Below are positions 30,710-64,000 of a stretch of 64,000 nucleotides of DNA, one piece after another. A program made the position numbers and the translations under genes. The notes under the pieces were generated by a model. The model was given only the letters and a program-made list of their open reading frames with translations, was not told the origin of the DNA and searched no databases. The stretch comes from Eledone cirrhosa (taxonomy: Eukaryota). The stretch is taken from the NCBI GenBank assembly GCA_964016885.1, contig OZ024742.1, forward strand, positions 79,422,001 to 79,486,000. Direction: 5' to 3'. Positions within the stretch are counted from its first letter, which is position 1. Every line of letters begins with the position of its first letter.

Positions 30710-31121
30710 TATATATATACATACATGCACACATATATATATATGTACGTATGTTACTTAAATATAAGTATGTATACGTACTTACATATATGTATACAGA
30801 CGCACAGTAGTATGTATATATATATATATACATACACAGATATATATATGGAATCACCAAACATTTATTATAATGCTCGGTGTATTTGTAAACAAACAAG
30901 CATCCCGTATTAAGCCGCAGTGTCTAGCAACCACCGTTGCTCGTTTGTTCAACACTGACTAAGGAACGCTGTACTAGTTTCAGCTTGTTAGCTATTGTAA
31001 GCAACGTATACTTTCCTGCCAGATTGTTGAACGTCCGAAAGTATATACTTTCCTTATGCATATTAACGGCTGAGTAGCCCAATTTGCATATCGAGCGGGT
31101 TAATCGGCCGGGGGTACCGAC
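30710..31121 (-). mobile_element. HHR family A monomer (core decayed to CTTACAA, 30966-31007)
   Basis: Reverse complement of about 8795-9165. Confidence 0.8.
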
Positions 31122-31421
31122 AATTAGTCATTTACCTTAAATTTATTTAAATATCCTTAATAATATCTCTTCTTCGGAGGGAAAGTAAAGTTTTTAAACC
31201 AGCGTTCTAAATAGCTTGGCAAACGTTTATACCTCATTACACAATGCTTCAAATGAACTATAACTTCCTCCATATATATATATATAAGTAATGCAATCGA
31301 TTTTGACGTTTTGTCAGATCTTCACACAAATAATACGTGACTGACTTTATTAACTAGAGCAAGTGTTCAAATAAGAAATAATTCGCTTACTAACGTGAGA
31401 ATGCATGACTTATACTCCCCG

Positions 31422-32856: not shown

Positions 32857-33278
32857 TAGCTTCATGCATAGCAGTATACATATATGTATTGGAATTTCGT
32901 ATTTCTAAAGAAATACGATACAGGTAAACATTTAGAAAGCCGTAGCTATGCAAAACAATGGGGCTAACGCCCTTTGGTGGTGTCCAACAGAAGCAAGGAG
33001 GACGTCAATCCTCGATGATTTCGAACTTAACTGGACCTCATCAGGACGATCCATCCCACACCTGCGACTGCTAGACTTGAAAACAGGCGAGAATATATGG
33101 TTTTCTCGTCTGTGTAAATGAGGTGATTAATCTCATTTGCATATGAAGCAGCATAAGTTTGCACAACTTATAATAGATTAGAACTAGGATTTAGCTTTAT
33201 GCATAGCAGATATGTATTGGAATTTCGGATTCCTAAAGAAATACGGTATGTTTACAGGCAAACACTTAGGAAGCTGTA
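32857..33278 (-). mobile_element. Retrozyme-like unit (~335-bp period) with terminal direct repeats, HHR and octamer
   Basis: 32857-32944 is repeated at 33192-33278. HHR at 33003-33048 and ATTTGCAT at 33135-33142. Confidence 0.7.
33003..33048 (-). ncRNA. Type I hammerhead ribozyme
   Basis: cgtc CTGATGA ggtc-cagttaa-gttc GAAATC atcgag GATT gacg. Confidence 0.75.
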
Positions 33279-34431: not shown

Positions 34432-34532
<101 letters not shown>

Positions 34533-34806
34533 GAGGTTATATTTAATTTGTTGGGATACAACAAGCAAAATATTTTTATGACTCATATAAAGCACTCAAC
34601 AAATGATTGGAGTAAATATACAATATATTAACAAATGGAAACTATATTTATAAAACCATATTTATTTCATTATACATATTTCAAGGGCCACTAGAGCAAA
34701 CTATGGTGCGCATTCATCAGATAAAATATAATATAGGTTAGTTTTATAAATAAATATTGACATACCCTTAAAAAATGCAAACAATGGTTGCATTTTTAAG
34801 GGTATG

Positions 34807-35587
34807 TCAACGTATACCTTCCTGCCAGATTGTTGAACGTTCAACAATCTGGCAGGAAGGTATACGTTGCTGACGATAGCTAATAAGCTTGAAACTAGTA
34901 CAGCGTTCCTTTGTCAGTGTTGAACAAACGAGCAACGATGGTTGCTAGACACTACGGCTTAATACGGGATGTTTGTTTACAAACACACCGAGCATTATAA
35001 TAAATGTTCGGTGAATCCATACGTACATATATATATGTGTGCATGTATGTATATATATATACATACTACTGTACGTCTGTATACATATATGTAAGTACGT
35101 GTACATACTTATATTTAATTAACAGGCGTACTAAGAGTGGGAAATGAAATTTCGTTTCAGTTTTCCCGTTTATCGTTGTCGGTGCACCCGGCCGATTAAC
35201 CCACTCGATATGCAAATTGGGCTACTCAGCCGTTAATGTGCGTAAGGTAAGTATATACGTTCAACAATATGGCAGGATGGTATACGTTGTTGACGATAGC
35301 TAATAAGCTTGAAACTAGTACAGCGTTCCTTTGTCAGTGTTGAACAAACGAGAAACGATGGTTGCTAAACACTACGGCTTAATACGGGATGTTTGTTTAC
35401 AAACACACCGAGCATTATAATAAATGTTCGGTGAATCCATACGTACATATATATATGTGTGCATGTATGTATATATATATACATACTACTGTACGTCTGT
35501 ATACATATATGTATGCACGTGTACATACTTATATTTAAGTAACAGCCGTACTAAAAGTGGGAAATGAAATTTCGTTTCATTTTTTCC

Positions 35588-35591
<4 letters not shown>
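34807..35591 (+). mobile_element. HHR family A tandem (period 420 bp) with 5' fold-back palindrome
   Basis: Perfect palindrome at 34808-34869. HHRs at 34864-34906 (intact) and 35284-35326 (C3>T). Confidence 0.9.
34864..34906 (+). ncRNA. Hammerhead ribozyme (family A)
   Basis: Identical to 8904-8946. Confidence 0.85.
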
Positions 35592-35656
<65 letters not shown>

Positions 35657-36903
35657 TATATATAATTTTAGAAAATGTAGAAATTTCATTCGCAGAAATA
35701 AATGTAGCCAATAGTTGGTTGCTATAAAAAGTAACTAAGAAAATCGGGTCAAATACAACTACCGATGTATTTTCTAAGCTATTATATATAGCAATCGACT
35801 GTGTTCACAGTTATAATCTGCGTTCAATGTTTTCTACATTCGATGCTCCGATCTTTTGTTTAGAAATGTTATATTTAATGTTGATATTAGCCTCTATTTT
35901 AGAGAGTAATTATCGTCATGTATCATTTAGTTCAGTGGTTCGGAGTAATCAATGTTCGATTCACTGTAGCATCTGCTGGACCCTTATTTACTTTTATGGG
36001 GGTATTACATGATATTCTAATCTATTATTTATCTCAGTCGACTGTGTTCACAGATATTTTCTATAAATAACAACTTAGTATCTTGTAGGTCTGGGAACAA
36101 AGTCATTACAGTCAATACAACCCTGTCTTTTTCCTATGCGCCTTAATACTCAAGACAACATTATCCAAGCCGGCATTGTGTGATTTGAAGGAAATTCAGC
36201 TGCTATTTCTAGCAGATCGTCTGTACATGTAGATGCTTCCTCTAGAGCGGAAGTCTTTAAAATCACTCATTAGCCAGGTAAAACGTTAAAGTAGGTGATG
36301 GATTAATTCTATAGCTCTATCACATTAAAAAACTTAGCTACAGGCTACTTGTCAGCATTTTTAAAGTTTGAAATACGGCTATGTATATTGTATCTCATTT
36401 AAGTATCTCATTTATCAAATGCTATATTTAAATTTTTATCTTTTCCTTTGATATTCGACTTCATATTTTCTTTCACTTCAAAACGTTGATATTCGTTAAA
36501 CCAAAAGGATTTTCCTCTGCTTAATGTAATTTTTGTTTCTTTGGTGATATGTTTTACTTTTGTGTGTGTTTGTGTGTAGATTATTTTCTAATAGATACAG
36601 AACTCTCAATTTTTCTTTCTGTCTTCTTCAAGTACTTGCTATGACACTTTCATCTGAGAAACATATTTTGTTGTTTAAAATGTTTTTCTTTTGAGTATTA
36701 AACATTAGGTGCATGTTGTTCCTTGAGGTGTCTTTATGGATATTCAATGGTGATATTCAAAACACACCCGAAATATTATAATTTCTTTACACATATCATT
36801 CATTCGTTGTTTTAATAGATACGTATAGAGGGTTGTGTAGTGTAGTTTAATTTTATATCTATTTTGTATTACGCTTCGAGGAGTTTATCTCTCGCTCTCG
36901 CTC

Positions 36904-36963
<60 letters not shown>

Positions 36964-37004
36964 AAATGAAAATCCGAAGGCAAGGTAAAATTCCAATCAT
37001 TTAA

Positions 37005-37078
37005 TCACGACACATGTTTCAATAAGAGATAGATCGATTGTGAAGCCACGATCAATTATCACTGATCTCATCAGGTGA
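37005..37078 (-). ncRNA. Hammerhead ribozyme in PLE pLTR
   Basis: tcac CTGATGA [long stem II] GAAAC atgt GTC gtga. Confidence 0.85.
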
Positions 37079-38753
37079 AAATGAATTGTCTTCAAATTTC
37101 TTGATATGAGGGAGAAAAACGATGTTACCACACATAATTCATTCCCTCATATGGAGACACATCAGTCAGTCAGAGACGAGGCGACTGCTATTAGCTTAAA
37201 ATTGAGGTCACAAAAGTTTTCAGACTTCCATCGCTGCAAAAGACGCTGGACATCGACACAAATCCGTAGGGATGCAGTCAGTCACAGTTAGAAGTAAGTG
37301 GATACACACACACTCCACACACGCATACATCGGCTCGAGGTCAAATAAAAATAAAAATAAAAATAAAAATAAAAATAAAAATAAAAATAAAAATAAAAAT
37401 AAAAATAAAAATAAAAATACAAATAAAAATAAAAATAAAAATAAAAATAAAAATAAAAATAAAAATAAAAATAAAAATAAAAATAAAAATAAAAATAAAA
37501 ATAAAAATAAAAATAAATACATGTACACACAACAACACAGTATTAAACCCGCGGAATTAGCGTGGGTGGGCACACATACACCCCAACACACACCGAAGCG
37601 ACATTCGAGAAAAAGCATATATAAGAATGTACCAACACAGCAATCACCGAAAAGTTAGTTCGTAAAGCAACAGAAATTATGGCGGTCAAATCTCAATTTG
37701 ACGATGTAAATCGGAAATGTTAAGTTAACCAACGCTACACACACATACACAAGCGCGTGCGCGCAAGTAAGTTCAGTTCAGTGTTCTGCTGTACGTGTAA
37801 AGACCCAACTGCAACATCAATATCTTCAAGTGTGGGTTATGGCAAAAGCTATATACACCCGAATCAGCCAAAAAATGGAAGTCTGGGTATATACACACCC
37901 ACGTGAAGAGCTCAATTTGACAATGCAGATTGGAAACATTGGGTCAACCAACGCTACACACATATACACACACACACGTGCGTGCGCGCAAGTAAGTTCA
38001 GTTCAATGTTCTGCTATACGCGTATACATCCAATTGTATCCGGATCGTCCCCCCCCAAAAAAAAAGGGGGTGGGGGTATATACACATCCATGTGAAGAGT
38101 AAGCATTCAGCTCATGTCGAACTCCTTGTGTACCGCTGTCCAGTTGAGAAGCAAAATAACCAAATCCGTGCGTGCAAGCAACTGCAGTGTGGGCCGGCAA
38201 AGGGCTCTATGTAGGGTTGGGTATAGGGTAAATGAGTCCGCAAGTGCGATCTCCCGCCACATGGGCCAATGGGCTTTTAAGATAGTTGGTCGAGTGGTGG
38301 AGGTGTGTTATTCAGCATAGAAGGTGAAGTAAGAAAATACAGGACAGTGCATGTGTGTAGGCCCATTAATCGTGTGTCAGTATCAATGTTCAATCCGTAA
38401 CAATGAGTCCTCCATGGCTAGATGATCACGCATCAAAACCTGGTGTAGAGTTCAGTCGGTAGGAACGTGACATTCGTAAATGTTGGAGCTCAATGTCTAA
38501 AGGAAGCGGGTACTGTGTGTATAGCTATGTATAGGGAGCGTAATCGGTCCTAACTAAGTGTGTAATCAATCTAACTATTTACTAGCTAGGTATTCTAAAA
38601 GAGAGCACTCAGCTATGAGAACTCCGTGGAAACATGCCGAGTATCTTTGCAAGTGCGCAAACAATCTTAGCCGTCTAACTACCTAAGTGTGTGACTGTCC
38701 GTTTATTGAGAGAACTCTAGGGCTTAATTAGAGAGGGAAGAGTTATTGGTAGG

Positions 38754-41186
38754 TTACCTTCCAAAAATCCTGCAGAAGGTTTTAGAGGTTCTATGTTGAC
38801 AGTTGCTGAAAAAATCCGCTCTTCTATTAATTAACAAGGGGCCGCCTCTAATAATATTGAAAGTTTCAGCTATACATAAATTGCAGACGCCAGTGCTGCC
38901 GTTATAAGGTTGGGGTGAACAAACTATGGACCAAGATAAGGAGCGCTCTATATTCTGAAGTTTAAGCTTCCAGACTAATTCCGAAAGTGCCGTGCTATTT
39001 TTCTTATCTAATCTATTAAAGGTATGGCGGTGATTATACCATCTATCCTTAAATTCAGTGGCAGTTGCTCCAACATACCTAAAAGTTCTATCAGGAGTGG
39101 AGACCTTACAGTCCTAGACTATGTGTTTGGTAAGGAATTCCCCAGCCAAGGGGCAGGTGGCGGTACTTCTGCAGTTGCAATTTCTGCTATCGATCTGGGT
39201 GGTTCGGGAAGGACCACGGTACCTTTGGGGTCGGGTCTCAGTTCCAGTCTGCTCTATGGGTAAATTCCCCGGGGTAGGGGCGACCCGACTCGCCTCACGT
39301 GTATGAGTCAGTTCCTCAATAGAGCTGCCATTGTTCCTGCCATGCCTAAATCCCTCATTGGCTGTCTTAAGTCTACTAAAATTCATCTTAGCTATATTCT
39401 GAGCTATGTTACTAGTTGTGGAGTAGGACAACTTGATAGTATTTCTATTGAATATTTCATAATATCTGTGCGATCTGGGGAAGCAATTGTCTAAGGCCCT
39501 AAAGAAAAGCTTAGCTATACTAGTGGTCAGGCCAGTGGAGTAAGGGGGATTAAACCACATGAATTTTCTGGTCCGATGTCTCCTGTTCCTACTAACTATA
39601 TTAGAATTACCACTCACCCTAGTAGTATCCAGTCTATTGTAACTGGAAATTACCTGTGAGTCGGAGGTGTCCAGGGGTGTCACGATTGTGTTCAGAATCG
39701 TCCCAAGTCTCCAGGACGGTGTAACCCCCGTGCGGCTATTGGGGTTACCCTCGATAGCTAGGGTTGTATCAGGTATGTGTCTGCTACACCTGTCCCAATT
39801 CCCCCTACTTGACCCTCGTTCCATACAACGTTCAACGGAAGTTCTATCGGTTCCACAATTAAGGTTACTACTAGAGTTTCCGCTGGCGTTACGTTGCTCA
39901 GACCCAGTGTTAGTACCTGGGTGGATGTTTCTATTAGTACTTACAGCATTGGAACTATGCGGCAGTACAGCATGAAGACTATGTGAAACCTCCCTCGTAT
40001 CCCGCCTGCTGTTAACTAGAGTGTCACCATAAAGGCCTAAGCTATCGCGAACAAAGTTACTACTACTATTTAATGGACGTTTGAATGAGATTCCCTCGCT
40101 ATGTCCTGCGCGTTCCAGGGCGCTATTATAGTAATTCGAGATCTTATTAAAGGTATCTACATTGTAAGAAAGCCCTGAAATTCTACTAGAGACGCTTTTG
40201 GTAATACCGTTAATGACTATTCTAGGGTGGTTCGATTTTGCGTTGATATAGTTTAGATTCTCGTTAGGTTTGTGGTAAGGTTGGAAGAGTCCTGAATTGA
40301 GGTCAAGTGTAACATCTAGAAAATTAACTATTTTTAAATTCTCTTCAAATACTATACTTAGGTCTATGCTCTTGAAGAATTTGCTAAGTTTTTTCCTCAC
40401 CCTCTCTACCATACTATTACTGTGGAACGACACAGTAAACAAGACGTTGTCGCGGTAAGCGCCGCCTCCCAAGTGGGGCATCTCAGCTCCGAGACTGTCA
40501 AGGATGTAAAGGCCCATCAGATCAGTCACCTGTGCCGAGTCCGAGGATCCCATGGTGATGTCGAAATTATCCGGCCAATCCCTCCTAGTCCACAGGTCAC
40601 CGTTGAACTCAATTAGGGTTTTTCTAGCTAGGAGGATAATGCTAATTTCCTCGGATGTAAGGTCGGTGTGTAAGCTAGCAAAATTAAGGGCCCTACCTAG
40701 GAGAGTTGGAGAGATTGAAGAGTAGTAATTGGAGATATTGAACTGTATAAACTTAGTGCTATTCTTATTCTGCGATTTCTCAAACCAGTTAATTACCTCA
40801 CTAGTTCCTGACCACAACTTGAGCTTCGATCTCCTAACTAGGGTGGGGATTATCTTATCAGGGATGTTTTTACTTACGATTCCTATGTCCCACTTCGAAG
40901 GGACTATCAACCTGATAGGTCTTAATGATTCTAAGTTCAATTTGTGGTCCTTCAGCAAAATCCTCGGGGTTCTAGGATGGAAGGGTTCGGTTTTATCCTC
41001 AATACCCAGTTTAATCATGACGCCATTGGCCTCCGTGTTAATTAAATCCAGGTTGGCGCGCGTAGTTTTTCTGTAGTTTTTTCTAAGTTCTCTGGTTATC
41101 AAATCATCATAAGTTACTCTATCCATATCGTACAGGTTGCTAGTCTTATCTGCGTGCACCAAAATGCCGGTCGAGTTCTTCAATTT
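38754..41186 (-). pseudogene. PLE reverse transcriptase / GIY-YIG endonuclease polyprotein (5'-truncated, one TAG)
   Basis: ADKT, RLIVP, FDITMGS, YRDN (YRDD mutated), NFLDVTL, WFNPPYS and CNCR..CPL. Beyond the TAG at 39114-39116 the frame continues YVGAT..FKDRWYNH..CNLC..CQHR to TAA at 38754. Confidence 0.9.
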
Positions 41187-42234
41187 TGCAGTTGCTTGCA
41201 CGCACGGATTTGGTTATTTTGATTCTCAACTGGACAGCGGTACACAAAGAGTTCGACATGAGCTGAATGCTTGCTCTTCACATGGATGTGTATATACCCG
41301 GATACCCCCCCCCCCCCCTTGGGAGGGGGGGGGGGGGCGATTCGGATGTATGTATACCTTTTGCCATAATACACACTTGAAGATATGGATGTTACAATTG
41401 GATGTATACGCGTATAGCAGAACATTGAACTGAAATTACTTGCGCGCACGCACGTGGGTGTGTGTATATGTGTGTAGCGTTGGTTGACCCAATGTTTCCA
41501 ATCTGCATCGTCAAATTGAGCTCTTCACATGGATGTGTATATACCCAGACTTCCATTTTTTGGCTGATTCGGGTGTGTGTATAGCTTTTGCCATAACACA
41601 CACTTGAAGATATTGATGTTGCAGTTGGGTCTTTACACGTACAGCAGAAAACTGAACTGAAATTACTTGCGCGCACGCGCTTGTGTATGTGTGTGTAGCG
41701 TTGGTTAACTTAACATTTCCGATTTACATCGTCAAATTGAGATTTGACCGCCATAATTTCTGTTGCTTTACGAACTAACTTTTCGGTGATTGCTGTGTTG
41801 GTACATTCTTATATATGCTTTTTCTCGAATGTCGCTTCGGTGTGTGTTGGGGTGTATGTGTGCCCACCCACGCTAATTCTGCGGGTTTAATACTGTGTTG
41901 TTGTGTGTACATGTATTTATTTTTATGTTTATTTTTATTTTTATTTTTATTTTTATTTTTATTTTTATTTGACCTCGAGCCGATGTATGCGTGTGTGGAG
42001 TGTGTGTGTATCCACTTACTTCTAACTGTGACTGACTGCATCCCTACGGATTTGTTTCGATGTCCAGCCTCTTTTGCAGCGATGGAAGTCTGAAAACTTT
42101 TGTGACCTCAATTTTAAGCTAATAGCAGTCGCCTCGTCTCTGACTGACTGATGTGTCTCCATATGAGGGAATGAATTATGTGAGGTAACATCGTTTTTCT
42201 CCCTCATATCAAGAAATTTGAAGACAATTCATTT

Positions 42235-42308
42235 TCACCTGATGAGATCAGTGATAATTGATCGTGGCTTCACAATCGATCTATCTCTTATTGAAACATG
42301 TGTCGTGA
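42235..42308 (+). ncRNA. Hammerhead ribozyme in inverted PLE pLTR
   Basis: tcac CTGATGA gat...att GAAAC atgt GTC gtga. Confidence 0.85.
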
Positions 42309-42488
42309 TTAAATGATTGGAATTTTACCTTGCCTTCGGATTTTCATTTTGGTACTTATAATCCGTTTTAAATCATCTAGCTGTTCCCTCGAATGGAATT
42401 GGAGATATACAAAAGCGTTGAGAACTTAATATTGCTAACATAAAATTATTGGACCTTTTTACACAACCAATATTGCACCTTACTATAT

Positions 42489-44171: not shown

Positions 44172-44646
44172 ATGGAAAAGAATGAACTGAAATTCCATTT
44201 CTCACTCTTAGTACGGCTGATACTTAAATATAAGTATGCATACGTACATACATATATTTATACAGACGTACAGTAGTATGTATATGTATACATACATGCA
44301 CACATATATATATGTTCGTATGGGTTTACCGAACATTTATTATAATGTTCGCTTTGTTTGTAAACAAACAGCCCGAATTACGCCGTACAGTGCTCGGCAA
44401 CCATCGTTGTCCTTTTGTTCAACACTGACAAAGGAACGATGTACTAGTTTCAAGCTTATTAGCTATCGTCAGCATCGTATACCTTCCTGTCAGATGATTG
44501 AACTTTTGAAAGTAGATACTTTCCTTATGCATATTAGCAGCCTAATTTGCATATCGAGTGAGTTAGTCGGTCGGGCGTACCGAAAACGATAAATGGAGAA
44601 GAATGAAATGAAATTTCATTTCTCACTCTTAGTACGGCTGATACTT
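44172..44646 (-). mobile_element. HHR family A, ~1.1 units
   Basis: Reverse complement of family A, with terminal repeat catttctcactcttagtacggctgatactta at both ends. Confidence 0.85.
44436..44478 (-). ncRNA. Hammerhead ribozyme (family A)
   Basis: acgatg CTGACGA tagctaataagctt GAAAC ta GTA catcgt, with a perfect stem I. Confidence 0.9.
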
Positions 44647-45742
44647 AGTAGTAGTTTGTTAACTTAGAACGATCAGACCTATGATGAACGGAGTTTCGGA
44701 AATGGCGCTTGTATTATTATCCAAGTGTAGTATACCCTGAATACATTATACTATATGTTCAGTTAAAAAAAAAATGATTGGTTTGAAAATATCACTCGTA
44801 TTTCAAGCAGGTTGGACCTTTGTGTCGAAGCTCCTTTGATGTATCGTTAATACATTTATTCGATTACGTCAGAGACAACTAATATCCAATGGTGTTCTAT
44901 AACAGAAGGTGAGCGCAGATCAAACAGTTCAAAAAGTATTCTAGGTGTGACTATCCTACATTATCCCAGGTGCCACAAACGTAGGACTAGATTATCCAGT
45001 GTGTGCTTCATTTTTATTTCTACAAAAATAGGGTGCAATTTAACAGGGATCTGGTTAGTATATCTAGCAGTTTCAGTAATGCGTAGAAGCTCTCTTATTG
45101 TTCCTATTATTGAATGATCTTTGAATTCAAATCCCGCCGATCTCAGCTTTGCCTTTCATCCTTACGAGCTCGATAAAATAAAGCACCAGTTATGAACTGG
45201 GGTAGATTTAATCGAAATTCACCCCCCTCCAAAGATTGTTAGTCGTGTGCCTAAATCAGAAACTATTATATAATGATCTTCATATATGTCGAACAGCAAT
45301 CATGCGACAATTTAATGAAAATTTGACTGTTATTTCTAGGAGGATGATTGACAGTATTGAAACTGTCTCCTTGGCTCATATTTAATGTTCTTTGCATATC
45401 TCGAACTGCAATCATGTGATCGTTCGTAGAGCGATGATAAAATCTAAGTAAGTCATCAAACCATTTTTTTTTCATTGCTCCTATTGCAATATCTGAACAC
45501 ATTTGTCATTTAAGCATTAAATTATATATCGTGTAATAGAGTATATATTTCAAAACATTTACCAAACTATATCGACTAGTTTTCTTTAGTTTTATTAACA
45601 TTAATTTCACGTTGTATATTGTAACGTTTTTCTGCTTATTGAGTAAGTGTTGCACACGAAAAGAGATGTTTGTAATGCCAAGTATATGTCACATCCATCA
45701 TTCTACCTACCACAGTAACACACACACACACACACACACACA

Positions 45743-46289: not shown

Positions 46290-46992
46290 TTAGCGAGAAT
46301 CGCATTTCGGCGAGTAGAAATTAGCGAAACGCAACTTCCGAATTGTGTTGGCAAGCGCTCAATGGATATGAAGATACCAGAGCTATAAACATAAGTTTAA
46401 AAGGCCATACAAAACCGAGACGATGGTTAAGAAGCCATTAACCACCTAAGCCAAAAAAGCGAGCAAGCTAAGCGGTTAAAAAAAAATAAGATATGATTTA
46501 AATATTTATCCGGATCCCGGGGATGATGGTAAAATCCGATATAGGGTTTCTGCGACACCTAAATCAATAATACTGTCTGCTTATAAAAAATAATAAGCTT
46601 TTCGTATAATGATCGAACAAGGATATCACTTTCTCAACAGGCAGTTTGTTCTGCATGCGCCAGGATCTCACAGTTTTCGAAAGCACATGTGAACTCCAAA
46701 GGGCAGAAAACCCTCAGTTTGGGCAAATGAATTCAGTATGTGTAGTCATTGCAAACATTTGCAAAAGTAGCACAAAACGAATAAAGCGAATATATAAACG
46801 AATATATATATATATAAATTGAATAGAATGTAACGAAATTTCATTTCTCACTCTTAGTACGGGACTTACTTAAAACAAACCGAGCATTATAATAAATGTT
46901 CGGTAAACCGATACGTGCATATATATATATGCGTGCATGTATGTATATATATACATATTACTGTACGTCTGTATACATATATGTATGTACGT

Positions 46993-47063
<71 letters not shown>

Positions 47064-47849: not shown

Positions 47850-49160
47850 GGGAGCTTTAAATTTCGCTAGAAAGTTTACCAATATCTCTGATATTGAAGA
47901 GAATGTCATCTTGCACGCTAGAAACACTCTACTCTTTACTGATAATGACACTTGGGTAAAAATATCTAACCCAGAGAGCCCATTCGATGTCTCAATGGGC
48001 TCTTTTGACAGTGCTGATGTTTGTGATTTAGTCGGCCTATTCCTCCTACACACACTTAAACAAAAATTCCCTAACCATATTTTTGGGCTTTATCGCGACG
48101 ATGGTCTAATACTTTCCCATACCACCATAGGCCATAACTTAGATAGATTAAGGAAAGACCTAATAAAAACCATTGCTAGTTTTAATCTTAAAATTACTAT
48201 TGACACTAACCTTTCCAATGTTCATTTTCTAGATATAAACCTAGGTTTGCCTACTGCTTCTTATAAAGCATACCATAAACCTAATGAAAATTTAAAATAT
48301 ATAAATAAAGGCTCTTGCCATCCTCCTATAGTTTTTAAAAACCTTATCCCTAATATTAGCCGTAGGATCTCCACACTCTCTTCCTCAGAAGCTATTTTCA
48401 ATAAGGCATCCCCCTACTATAATAAAGCCCTTCAAAATAGCGGATTTAGCGAACCGATTAAGTACATACCCAATTATACTAACTCTTTTAAACATAAAAA
48501 TAGGAAAAGAAAAATAATCTGGTTCACACCCCCCTACTCTCTAGCAGTTAAAACTAATGTAGGCAAAAAATTCCTAGAGCTCTTAGATAAACATTTCCCT
48601 AGAACACATAGATACTATAAGATCTTCAATAGAAACTGTGTCAAAATTAGCTACTCCTGCGGTCCCCCTAAAAAATCTTATATCATCAACAAGAAATCAT
48701 CCAGAGAACATCAAAATTGCTCCTGTAGAGTCAAAAGTGAATGCCCATTACAAGGTAAATGCAACACCAAAGCCATTGTATATGCGGCTAAAGTGAAAAC
48801 CATCAGCAACAACCAACCAGCCACCAGCGAACGATATGTGGGTATGGCACAAGACAAATTCAAAACGCGTTATTACTCACATGTATCTTTCCGACATCCA
48901 GAAAAAAGATTCACAACAGCTCTGGCTAGCAGTATATTGGATTTGAAAGACTAAGATATGAAATATAAATTGGATTGGTCAATTTTGAACTAATCTAAAG
49001 AATATGCAAGAGGAACAAGAAGATGCACACTCTGCATAAGTGAAAAGTATTGGATTTTACAAAACCTTAAATCACTAAAAACTTGCCTAAATACAAAAAC
49101 AGAAATTTTTACCAGTTGCCCACACATGAAATCACACTTGCTTTCCAGCTCATATAAACT
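47850..49160 (+). pseudogene. PLE (Naiad-like) RT + GIY-YIG, 5'-truncated
   Basis: FDVSMGSFDSA, LYRDDGL, FLDI, WFTPPYS, CSCR..CPLQGKC..IVY..YVG. Continues past stops to CTLC..CPH. Confidence 0.9.
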
Positions 49161-51079: not shown

Positions 51080-52452
51080 GTAGATGCGATTTCAGGTGCG
51101 TACAACATCTACTTATCTTGGTCTTAGAGTGGTATGGGTTTTCAAGTTTTGGAGAATTCTAAATTTTTCCATAGTACACAAAGAACATTTCTTTGTACCC
51201 CTCTGGTATTCTCTGGAATGGGCTAAAATAGACCAATCAATAGTGTACGGAATGTTTTTGTCTTTAAACTCCCACACTTTATTTGCCAGCGCCATTGCTG
51301 TTCTTTTTTCAGGGTGTTTGATAGACGCGACATGTGCATAATACCTGGTTTTAAATCTGTCCTGAGTCATGCCAACATATCGTTCACTCCTGGCTGGCTG
51401 GTTATTAATCATTGGTGTCAATTTGGCCTCATACACACTAGATTTGGTATTACATTTACCATGTAATAGGAATTCTTCCGGCTTCCTGCAACTGCATCGT
51501 GGATTTACTCTAGTACCATTAGAGTTGGTAATTTTAGATTTCATTGATGGGCAGCAAGAGTAACTGATTTTAACTATATTTCTATTGAATATCTTATTAT
51601 ATCTATGATTAGGGGAAAAATATTTGTCAAGGATGTCGAGGAATTTTCTTCCTACGTTAGTTTTAACAGTTAGAGAGAAGGGGGGGGGGGTCTAAACCAA
51701 ATAATTTTTATTTTCCTGTTATTGTGTTTAGTGTTAGAAAGAGGAGTAGGTGAATATTTAATTTGTTCGGTGAAGCCGCTGTTACTAAGGGCTTTATTGT
51801 AATAAGGGGCGGCTGTGTTAAAATGTCTATAGACGAAGATAAGGTAGAAATCCTACGGCTAATATTAGGAATAAGATTTTTAGAGACTATAGAGGGATGG
51901 CCTGACTCTTTGTGTATATATCTTAAATTTTCATTGATAAGGTTTAAAAGAGGCGGTAAGTAGGTCAAGATTGATATCAAGAAAGTTAGTATTAGTAAGA
52001 TTCGTATCTATAGTAATTTTAAGGTTTAGGTTAGCAAAGGTGTTGATTAAGTATTTACGGAATGTATCATGGTTATGGCCGTTGGTGGTATGAGAAACTG
52101 CCAAACCGTCGTTTCGGTATAAACCGATATTATGGCAAGGAAATTCTCTTTAAGGGTGTGGAGGAGGAATAATCCTACTAAGTCGCACACATCGGCATTA
52201 TCATATGAGCCCATTGTAATATCAAAAGAGTTTTCAGGGCTTGATTTTTTAACCCAAGTACCTTCATTAGCAAAGAGTAGTGTTTTCCTAGCATGAAAGA
52301 TAACGTCTTCTTCTAATTTAGAAATATTAATGAAAAGTCTAGCAAAATCTAAAGCTTTTGTTAATAAGGATTCAGTGATAGAGGGGTACACTATTGATTG
52401 GTCTATTTTAGACCATTCAAGAGAATACCAAAGGGGCACAAAGAAATATTCT
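51080..52452 (-). pseudogene. Degraded PLE (Naiad-like) RT + GIY-YIG with short inverted 5' segment
   Basis: FDITMGSYDNADVCDLVGL, CSCR, YVGMT..FKTRYYAH and CSLC. 52385-52452 is an inverted copy of about 51175-51245. Confidence 0.85.
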
Positions 52453-53409: not shown

Positions 53410-54361
53410 TTAAAACCATAAAAGGTGTTTTAGCTGTACTGCTAAAATCAAGAACATTATATGCCTACCACACGCACTGAGAGCCTTCTCGTTTGGTATA
53501 ATCACCAATGGAATAGACCGGGCAAAGCACACATATTTCCATGATTTCAGTAACTCCAAACACAAAGCCAAGGACAACAGCTTACTGTATGTATCCAACT
53601 TTAATCCCAGAAATATTCAAACGTTTGACCACCTCCGCAAAAACTCCCCCTTCCTACCTGAGCGTGATAAAATAAAAAAGTCCTGGAAACATTCGAAATC
53701 ATCAAAGGTAAAAGCAGCCCAAATCACTAAAACATATTCGCAATGGAACAAATATACATAAACAAATCACTATCCCTACTGTGACAAAATGGAGACGAAG
53801 AAAATGACATGCCTATCATTAACCGAGGGACGAAATTTCATATTTAAAGACGGCCAAAAGTTTACAGTAGAAGCTAATTTCACCTGTAACAAAGAAAACT
53901 TAATTTACCCAGTAACACGCAGTAGATGACAGCAAAATTACATAGGACAGACGTTGGTCATTCTCTTACGCAAGAGAATGACCAACCATAACCCACGCCA
54001 ACAAATCAACTAGAAACATGCCCCCCCCCCACACCTAAGTAGCCACATTGCAGGTTGTGTAGGCATGAACTTGCCCAACTTTAAAATGGTCCCCCTTTCA
54101 TATGTTCCGACTCTTTCACACAAATACAGAACATAAATAAATAAAACAAATGAGCAAATACACACCAGAACTATATATGTAATTACTCCAGGAGATTATA
54201 CATAGGGAACCATGCACCAAACACACATATACAAGCAGATATTCTTATTACACAGAAATGAAGAGACATTTTTCAATTTCCAATTTTTCACATTTTAATC
54301 TTTGACGTTTTAAAATTTGATATTTGATAAGATTAATTTACTTACCGAAACCGGTAGTATT
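53410..54361 (+). mobile_element. Degraded PLE 3' end (Neptune-like Cys linker + GIY-YIG) with decayed HHR at 54319-54361
   Basis: NFTCNKENLIY...NYIGQT at about 53876-53953, and gatat TTGATAA...GAAAC cg GTA gtatt. Confidence 0.65.
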
Positions 54362-62827: not shown

Positions 62828-63495
62828 AAAAGAGTCAGTACCCCGACGGCTGAGCTCCGGCTGTTTCGACAGTTAGATCCGAGAAGGCGAGGTCCTAACT
62901 CTTTTCCTATTACCCACTCTACTACTCTAAGTATTGAGTACTCTGGTGGGTTTTGGTCCACCTGCTATCTTACCACATCCTCTTTGACGTAATGAGGTTT
63001 ATTTTTCAACAGAGTTCCTGGAAAGACACAACCCAATTATCAACATGAAGCGTTGAAATTAATGCATGCAAGATTTCACAGCTCCAGCAGAACTCATTCA
63101 TAGGCAGCCTATGAACTCTTCAGCCCCACCCTCTCTCTCCATACACACACACACACACAAATATATATATATATATATAAAGAAAATTTCGCTCTACATG
63201 GCTGAATATAATAAATGTAATCTGAGCTTTTCGAATGTTAATAATAACATACGATTCGTTTACAATTTTGCAAACAAACCTCAATTTTATAGCCATGTCA
63301 GTCGAATGAACACTTCATTCTTGCTCTTGGGTTGGCATGCGAACAGAACTGCAGACACTAATGTTTCTGTGTATTACCCTTCACCAGAAGAGCTCACTGT
63401 TCACCTGCCAAACTGTCAGAGCTAGTGAGAATATATGCTATTATCAAAAATACACAGTGACTGATCGGCCTGACAGTTTGGCAGCTGAACAGTGA

Positions 63496-63541
63496 GCTGT
63501 ACTGATGAAGGGTGATACCCAGAAACATTAGTGTCTGTAGT
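63496..63541 (+). ncRNA. Hammerhead ribozyme (family B)
   Basis: gctgta CTGATGA a-gggt-gat-accc-a GAAACA ttag TGTC tgtagt. Confidence 0.85.
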
Positions 63542-63769
63542 TCGGTTCGTATGCCAACACAAGAGCCAGAATGAAGTGTTCATTCTACTGACATGGCTAT
63601 AAAATTGAGGCTTGTTTGCAAAATCGAATGTTATTATTAATATTCGAAAAACTCAGATTACATTTATTGTATTCAGCCATGTAGAGCGAAATTTTCTTTT
63701 TTATTTAAATTTGGCACAGCCGGCCATTTATCACTCGTATACAGGAAACTGACTGGCCAGTCTGCTGAT

Positions 63770-63843
63770 ATGCAAATCTCGCTGAGCAGTGGATCTGTTA
63801 ATATGCAGATCTGACTGATCAGCCAGTCTGCTAATATGCAAAT
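63770..63843 (+). promoter_or_regulatory. Octamer cluster (ATGCAAAT x2, ATGCAGAT x1) upstream of the family B HHR
   Basis: Motifs at 63770, 63803 and 63836, spaced 33 bp apart. Function is inferred. Confidence 0.45.
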
Positions 63844-63920
63844 TAGACAGATCAGTCACTGTGTATTTTTGAAAATAGCATATATTTTCACTAGCTCTGA
63901 CAGTTTGGCAGGTGAACTGA

Positions 63921-63966
63921 GCTGTACTGATGAAGGGTAATACCCAGAAACATTAGTGTCTACAGT
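63921..63966 (+). ncRNA. Hammerhead ribozyme (family B)
   Basis: gctgta CTGATGA a-gggt-aat-accc-a GAAACA ttag TGTC tacagt. Confidence 0.9.
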
Positions 63967-64000
63967 TCTGTTCGCATGCCAACACAAGAGCAAGAATGAA

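Follow-up and report, generated by a model that had tools for sequence, protein, structure and literature searches.

Insertion ends of a hammerhead-bearing repeat family in the Eledone cirrhosa genome suggest mobilisation by Penelope-like elements

The region around position 34,807 of a 64,000-nucleotide stretch of Eledone cirrhosa DNA (assembly GCA_964016885.1, contig OZ024742.1, positions 79,422,001 to 79,486,000 of the forward strand; hereafter the window) carries a head-to-tail repeat with a hammerhead ribozyme motif, and no open reading frame across it reaches 150 aa. This raises the question of how such a unit is copied and inserted. For the metazoan non-LTR retrozymes, RNA circles and ribozyme cleavage have been demonstrated and Penelope-like elements (PLEs) proposed as the mobiliser (PMC7229834; reviewed in PMC7761336). 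The link between retrozymes and PLEs in the papers found consists of co-occurrence, phylogeny and shared ribozymes, and among titles and abstracts (subscription papers and supplements being outside the scope) we found none on retrozyme insertion ends or on the present family. Both the element class and the idea of PLE mobilisation are already known.

Family A and its copies in the window

The original prediction placed five loci and a fragment of a 420-428-bp unit in the window, and all of them were found where it had located them. The repeat is referred to here as family A, and positions within its unit are numbered from the base after the predicted cut, such that u1 is 34901. The 34807 locus contains the following features.

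34808..34838, minus strand: fold-back of the arm's 5' end, an inverted copy of 31 bp
34839..35593, plus strand: forward arm of family A, comprising 1.8 head-to-tail units (unit length 420 bp), 5'-truncated, with its 3' end at site B
34849..34917, plus strand: first type I hammerhead of this arm, core CUGACGA at 34870, predicted cut after 34900
35104..35117, plus strand: site A of unit 1 (the short 3' end, about 217 nt past the cut site)
35173, plus strand: site B of unit 1, where loose ends occur in DNA run X1
35210..35217, plus strand: octamer ATGCAAAT, 98% conserved across copies and common to family B, a candidate promoter element
35269..35337, plus strand: second hammerhead, with damage to the core (C3U, 35290) and at two positions of the outer helix I 5' strand
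35524..35537, plus strand: site A of unit 2 of the same arm
35538..35593, plus strand: tail of about 56 nt from site A to site B, ending at B
35591..35664, no strand: (TA)n tract bordering the 3' end and probably the insertion target

The two units of the forward arm are 96% identical to each other, and the fold-back together with the start of the arm (34839-34869) forms a perfect 62-bp palindrome, 34808-34869, centred on ACGT. This palindrome and a head-to-head hammerhead-like repeat upstream of it go beyond what had been described for the locus. The first hammerhead combines GAAA and a U.U at the base of helix II with a 1-bp helix III closed by a CUAG loop, and its helix I is in three parts with a 3-nt/1-nt internal loop. 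The remaining copies in the window are listed below.

8781..9217, plus strand: 1.04 units, intact hammerhead at 8910, B end, TA on both sides
16992..17820, plus strand: 1.9 units of a 428-bp subfamily, A end
30710..31123, minus strand: about 0.9 unit, core broken (31001), end rearranged
44172..44647, minus strand: 1.1 units, intact hammerhead at 44472, B end
46821..47000, no strand: two-armed fragment lacking the ribozyme, minus arm ending at B and plus arm at A, both in TA

The copy at 16992..17820 bears the marks of its subfamily, a G.U pair, a C.A at the base of helix II and a GUU site, and its first hammerhead (17135) lacks the helix III palindrome while the second (17563) is intact. The 5' end of 30710..31123 is fused, in the same orientation, to sequence resembling the 3' region of another Penelope-like element. 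Intact hammerheads number four of seven in the window (8910, 17563, 34870 and 44472), the defective ones being 17135 (palindrome lost), 31001 (broken core) and 35290 (C3U). No locus in the window carries two intact cores and none, therefore, fits a model of monomer release. Two consecutive complete ribozymes, by which Li, Clavereau and Pollet define an 'active' element (10.64898/2026.07.22.740005), are present elsewhere in the family, L244 and L247 being examples. The 34807 locus itself is a daughter copy, rather old and damaged, and is unlikely to act as a source.

A 30-letter pattern for the family A core has 12,319 exact matches across the 3.0-Gb genome and its reversed control has none, so the pattern is not due to chance. 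A 23-letter word lying just past the cut site yields 29,011 matches and one young subfamily 1,849, each again with zero for the reversed control. Units are spaced head to tail at 420-433 bp, with one at 453, and the non-repetitive part of the unit has a GC content of 42%. No open reading frame for a reverse transcriptase (RT) with a GIY-YIG domain occurs in the unit, and the PLE coding matches found at family A loci lie outside the repeat.

These properties resemble those of the metazoan non-LTR retrozymes, which are described as tandem non-coding units of 150-450 bp, each with one type I hammerhead, a GC content below 50% and thousands of copies (PMC7229834). The elements of that study are characterised by RNA circles and cleavage, and family A by the analysis of its insertion ends in DNA. 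Considered as a family, it has all those defining features of the metazoan non-LTR retrozymes that can be read from DNA, and it is an additional member of that class.

Hammerhead anatomy and the case for dimers

The type I order, CUGAYGA, helix II, GAAA, helix III and GUH, was recovered with a descriptor. Rfam yielded no hammerhead over the window at the gathering score, nor over 34700-35700 at E values up to 10, and its miRNA-like matches, all under the gathering score, were discarded as low-complexity or palindrome artefacts. Anatomy was compared in 170 natural instances, tandem units being counted singly, of which 158 retain the full 5' strand. The pairs of helix I (6 + 4 + 6) are interrupted by a bulge of 2 nt and by the 3-nt/1-nt internal loop. 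Loop II reads UAAUAA or UAACAA, helix II has U.U at its base in 163/170 instances, and CUAG forms the helix III loop in 160/170.

The variants of stem I and the ACTAGT palindrome that had been predicted are both present, and the variation is confined to base pair 2.3-1.3, which is mainly U-G (76 instances), G-U (46) or A-U (27). This pair is formed in 151 of the 158 instances, whereas 2000 shuffles gave a mean of 79 and a maximum of 101, in a test that ignores relatedness among copies. The pattern is a real compensatory one, yet it reflects only a few evolutionary events at the subfamily level.

Helix III can form only one pair in cis, at -10.2 vs -15.6 kcal/mol for the fold without it, a cost of about 5 kcal/mol, and two ACUAGU palindromes pair with each other at -6.8 kcal/mol. 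Folded alone, the first ribozyme is no better than shuffled sequences (z -0.86), while the monomer fold scores z -4.6, a value that is probably inflated by AT palindromes. The family A ribozyme joins the 1-bp palindromic helix III of HHR_Amex1 to the U.U helix II base of HHR_Amex2 (PMC7229834). Since these same two weaknesses occur in two axolotl ribozymes that are reported to cleave well only as dimers (PMC7229834), it is sound to infer that cleavage of the family A hammerhead is probably dimer-dependent. A type I hammerhead in a tandem repeat, dimer-dependent in that case, is also described for newt satellite 2 (PMC6155905, PMC2220036). The anatomy and the likeness to the axolotl and newt ribozymes (PMC7229834) support the retrozyme reading of the original prediction, with a type I hammerhead that is weak and probably acts as a dimer.

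One could argue that the hammerhead is a chance match within an ordinary SINE- or MITE-like repeat, as the lack of an Rfam hammerhead and the shuffle-like fold of the isolated first ribozyme would allow. This is very improbable given that all core positions and three helices occur in order, that the 16-bp helix I carries compensatory and wobble changes, and that the two weak features recur in the characterised axolotl ribozymes (PMC7229834).

The octamer lies in a module common to families A and B, which aligns with a score of 55 against a shuffle maximum of 45 in 200. Regional estimates of conservation were set aside, since they are biased for the core and post-cut stretches by whose words the loci were chosen. 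A possible internal promoter of the snRNA type has been discussed for newt satellite 2 (PMC6155905, PMC2220036). Such a promoter is unsupported in family A, because the octamer, present in the unit, is absent within 320 nt upstream of four U2 loci, which also share no other convincing element with the unit.

Family B itself is represented in the window at 63460-64000 (plus strand), with an inverted arm at 63314-63466 and hammerhead cores at 63502 and 63927. It has a longer and more stable helix III, a GUC site and several octamer-like words in the module homologous to that of family A, and further copies occur in L094/L126 and L123.

Insertion ends and Penelope-like elements

Insertion ends were examined at 100 listed places for the core pattern and 100 for the post-cut word, spanning the first 37 Mb and 21 Mb of contig C1, respectively, and merging to 106 places. 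These yielded 124 insertions, after two were dropped at locus edges. By its selection, the sample favours copies extending as far as the ribozyme region. The 3' ends fall into two narrow windows that together make up 14% of the unit but receive 150 of 175 ends. Site A extends over u190-222 (mode 217) and site B over u250-275 (mode 273), about 56 nt apart. A (TA)n run abuts 131 of the 150 ends at A or B vs 5 of the remaining 25. Low-complexity sequence lies next to site A, but its junctions show the same end word followed by TA; site B is unique sequence and is seen again as loose ends in run X1, which may derive from the assembled sample. Since the insertion ends lie in (TA)n, target-site duplications, which exceed 4 bp in non-LTR retrozymes that have them, are unreadable.

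In contrast to the fixed 3' ends, the 5' starts are scattered from u50 to u391, and TA is less frequent there (27/73). Two fixed 3' ends combined with random 5' truncation produce an apparent circular permutation, so the permuted units of the original prediction are apparent ones, and a random circular permutation is unsupported.

Of the 124 insertions, 50 consist of two back-to-back arms and 73 of a single arm, with one complex case; the count of single arms is inflated if chains in the longer-unit subfamilies have been split. Every classifiable two-armed insertion pairs one A end with one B end (36/36, p 3e-11 against 0.5), with 14 more having one unclassified end, and among young arrays the same holds for 7/7 further two-armed insertions, two being unclassified. 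Among the 100 listed cores, neighbours closer than 1.5 kb are divergent in seven cases and convergent in one.

The 5' truncation, partial tandems, inverted 5' copy (50/124), (TA)n target and one-sided tail of family A together constitute the footprint recorded for PLEs, for which 5' truncation, partial tandems, an inverted 5' copy, an often one-sided tail and (TA)n targets are described (PMC8557442). In vitro, moreover, PLE reverse transcription is reported to begin at either of two internal sites, between which the tail lies (PMC11167929). Family A is thus like the Neptune/Nematis-type PLEs and Naiad in its truncations, partial tandems and inverted 5' copies, as well as in its one-sided tail, two internal start sites and AT-rich or (TA)n targets. 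It is unlike them in lacking an open reading frame, in a tail of about 56 nt rather than 30-40 (PMC8557442, PMC11167929), and in the lack of a clear homology to an autonomous pseudo-LTR in our comparisons.

Autonomous elements with such ends are present in the same genome. Among 150 GIY-YIG loci scored of 10,595 candidates, several contain RT and GIY-YIG open reading frames with a Neptune/Nematis-type cysteine linker. The end word of one autonomous PLE, the L126 type, has 11,554 matches; its divergent pairs combine a short and a long end in 7/7 cases, and 28 of 30 ends run into TA. As family A copies end exactly like the genome's own Penelope-type elements, it is most likely the enzymes of the latter that paste them, and we consider mobilisation by PLE machinery very likely. 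Reverse transcription had been foreseen as the source of the copies, and the end footprint supports this and supplies the driver that had been left unnamed.

A non-coding family of more than 12,000 copies thus combines short with long ends as strictly as does an autonomous PLE of the same genome. Li, Clavereau and Pollet (2026) likewise conclude that retrozymes depend on PLEs, on the basis of co-occurrence and pseudo-LTR phylogeny in vertebrates (10.64898/2026.07.22.740005), whereas the present argument is built on the insertion footprint. The end rule also predicts exactly where priming should occur, in a form suited to the in vitro assay already available for one PLE, and it makes the choice between circular and linear RNA testable.

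The short end of the L126 type shares a pyrimidine-rich word, 13 of 14 letters, with site B of one subfamily. When the tail was aligned to PLE 3' regions at 50 of the 150 listed GIY-YIG places, the scores were mostly near shuffle level and no autonomous partner could be named among them. A match to the L115-type 3' region (z 3-8) was rejected since it consists of a short AT-rich stretch.

The polarity of the ends also bears on the reading of family A as a satellite or foldback element that is spread at the DNA level, by recombination or extrachromosomal DNA circles, with the ribozyme as a relic. Such a process would account for L245, with its higher-order repeats and patchwork units, and DNA repair can create fold-back palindromes. 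The strand-specific fixed 3' ends, scattered 5' ends, pairing of A with B and TA targets match an RT-encoding element of this genome instead, and the DNA-level reading is already largely refuted and, in our judgement, improbable.

Several other PLE-related sequences were noted. In an autonomous family (L117, L118, L121, L129 and L113), a small motif resembling a hammerhead lies 3' of the open reading frame, some 200 nt from the 3' end of the element, while a scan of the L126-type pseudo-LTR detected no such motif. Pseudo-LTR ends of the L126 type occur in the window at 25327 (plus strand) and 62490 (minus strand), together with coding fragments of two other PLE families at 20180-20865 (minus strand) and 53477-54097 (plus strand). 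The region 36953-42360 contains a 699-aa open reading frame (39114-41213, minus strand) without a Pfam match, flanked by inverted repeats of about 1.2 kb; its look-alikes in the Atlas (score 0.94-0.96) carry HTH_animal and RVT_1, and the region is likely to represent a Penelope-like element that is divergent and two-armed and whose RT motif has degenerated.

Templates, mixed junctions and neighbouring repeats

Sequence upstream of the cut site is retained in 74 of 75 distinct contexts, in two of them for only about 10 nt, and 5' starts do not pile up at u1, which excludes a cut linear monomer as the template. Because the inserts run across the cut site, the template must be either a circle or an uncut multimer.

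The young loci L244 and L247 are two-armed arrays of nine units with only one and three variable sites, respectively. At L244, two variants occur in every covered unit of both arms and are missing from the closest siblings, and one of the two is also found at a more distant locus; L151 and L163 provide similar cases of variants common to all units. Overall, 14 locus-private variants are common to all units vs 148 confined to one unit, and those that are locus-wide could come from a homogeneous source array. At L034, units 2 and 4, and units 3 and 5, agree at the shared sites, and L151 alternates as well. This alternation could reflect a circle of two units, a linear template of mixed composition or a duplication of DNA. 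Variants specific to one arm are found at L254 and L182. We consider that the near-identical nine-unit arrays favour a circle modestly, with two-unit periodicity and mixed-family junctions complicating the picture.

L245 is a patchwork of 28 units indicative of turnover at the DNA level. With L246 (C1:53354000-53373000) it forms a satellite-like family A array of at least 28 diverged units, having a three-unit higher-order repeat in which units 5 and 8 are alike, as are units 6 and 9. RNA-editing scars were sought and rejected, there being no A-to-G excess (83 vs 87 T-to-C; one vs one among shared private variants), and runs X4 and X5 of other organisms gave 14 and 11 short contigs only, too few to interpret. 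No RNA run was listed as containing the sequence, which counts neither for nor against transcription.

Weighing these results, we regard a circular RNA as the somewhat better supported template, and family A as most likely a non-autonomous non-LTR retrozyme that is mobilised by PLE proteins, probably from circular RNA. Tandem source loci would be transcribed, and two hammerheads, base-paired at their ACUAGU palindromes, would probably cleave after GUA, releasing pieces of one unit, sometimes two, that may be ligated into circles, as work on axolotl and newt suggests. A PLE GIY-YIG endonuclease would likely nick both strands of a (TA)n tract, the TA being observed and the enzyme presumed. An RT, similarly presumed from the fixed ends, would start at internal site A or B of the RNA. 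Copying passes the cut site, as observed, and would continue for a variable length to leave 5'-truncated partial tandems. Priming of both target strands, at A for one arm and at B for the other, could generate the back-to-back arms that are seen.

In the competing explanation the same PLE machinery copies an uncut linear multimer transcribed from tandem arrays, and the hammerhead is slow or serves another step. The autonomous PLEs of this genome leave the same two-armed footprint, and for an anole PLE the dominant substrate is reported to be uncut RNA (PMC11167929), with ribozyme mutants inserting equally well and no RNA reads ending at the cut site in the experiments described (PMC11167929). 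Furthermore, the ribozyme of family A combines two weak features, 105 of the 124 insertions carry only one or two ribozyme sites, and both the two-unit periodicity and the arm-specific variants fit heterogeneous linear templates. For Xenopus, 8 of 9 dimers are reported not to cleave (10.64898/2026.07.22.740005). Linear copying with 5' truncation can, however, only shorten arrays, whereas young insertions reach nine near-identical units with locus-specific variants in both arms; the single very long array seen, L245, is too heterogeneous as a source, and the compensatory change suggests that the fold is maintained. We therefore rate the uncut multimer as possible but distinctly less probable than the circle.

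The sequence of monomer release, circularisation and rolling copying that was originally proposed thus stays plausible, and slightly preferred, for the family, and does not apply to any locus within the window. It is weakened by the two-unit period of some arrays and in that PLEs, which are not known to need a circle, leave partial tandems as well.

Upstream of the 34807 locus lies a second repeat, which introduces the question of mixed junctions.

34533..34810, minus strand: family C repeat, different from A, running into (TA)n near 34532; its own core, which resembles a hammerhead, lies at 34720-34673

Family C has at least 230 genome matches with up to one mismatch. Its 28-bp fold-back on the plus strand (34783-34810) overlaps that of family A by three bases, and the rest of the family C plus arm was not found downstream. 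The layout of 34533-35593 is therefore a family C arm, two fold-backs and a family A arm, with TA at both outer ends. Among 65 single-armed family A copies screened, two (L026 and L082) are joined head to head to autonomous pseudo-LTR ends, and PLE-type neighbours occur in 8/65 of the 3' flanks. Such junctions may be single events involving two RNAs or later insertions that deleted target DNA.

A more tentative reading, to which we give rather low credence, is that priming at a (TA)n break is asymmetric: a dimeric PLE protein would use site A for one strand and site B for the other, rolling round circles of one or two units made by the ribozyme, and the arms could be drawn from different RNAs. 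Arms could then mix retrozyme families, or a retrozyme with an autonomous element, and 34533-35593 would be one mixed event. If this were true, the genome would record a guild of hammerhead circles that parasitise PLE enzymes.

Family C (34533-34810, and also at 27322) has an AT-rich stem I, a two-armed layout and two 3' ends in TA, and at L211 a piece of it is joined to an L115-type pseudo-LTR. In the 3' flanks of single-armed copies, other hammerhead-like repeats, including several further families, lie tail to tail across the TA (11 toward, 3 away), which suggests repeated targeting of the TA runs beside older insertions. Isolated hammerhead-like descriptor matches with short stems occur at 33044 and 57004, both on the minus strand. 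The window also contains LINE-like fragments at 565-2640, with endonuclease and zf-RVT matches, a 200-base assembly gap at 12377-12576, and two inverted 1.15-kb stretches (47853-49004 and 51207-52356) that are 70% identical and each carry an open reading frame without a Pfam match.
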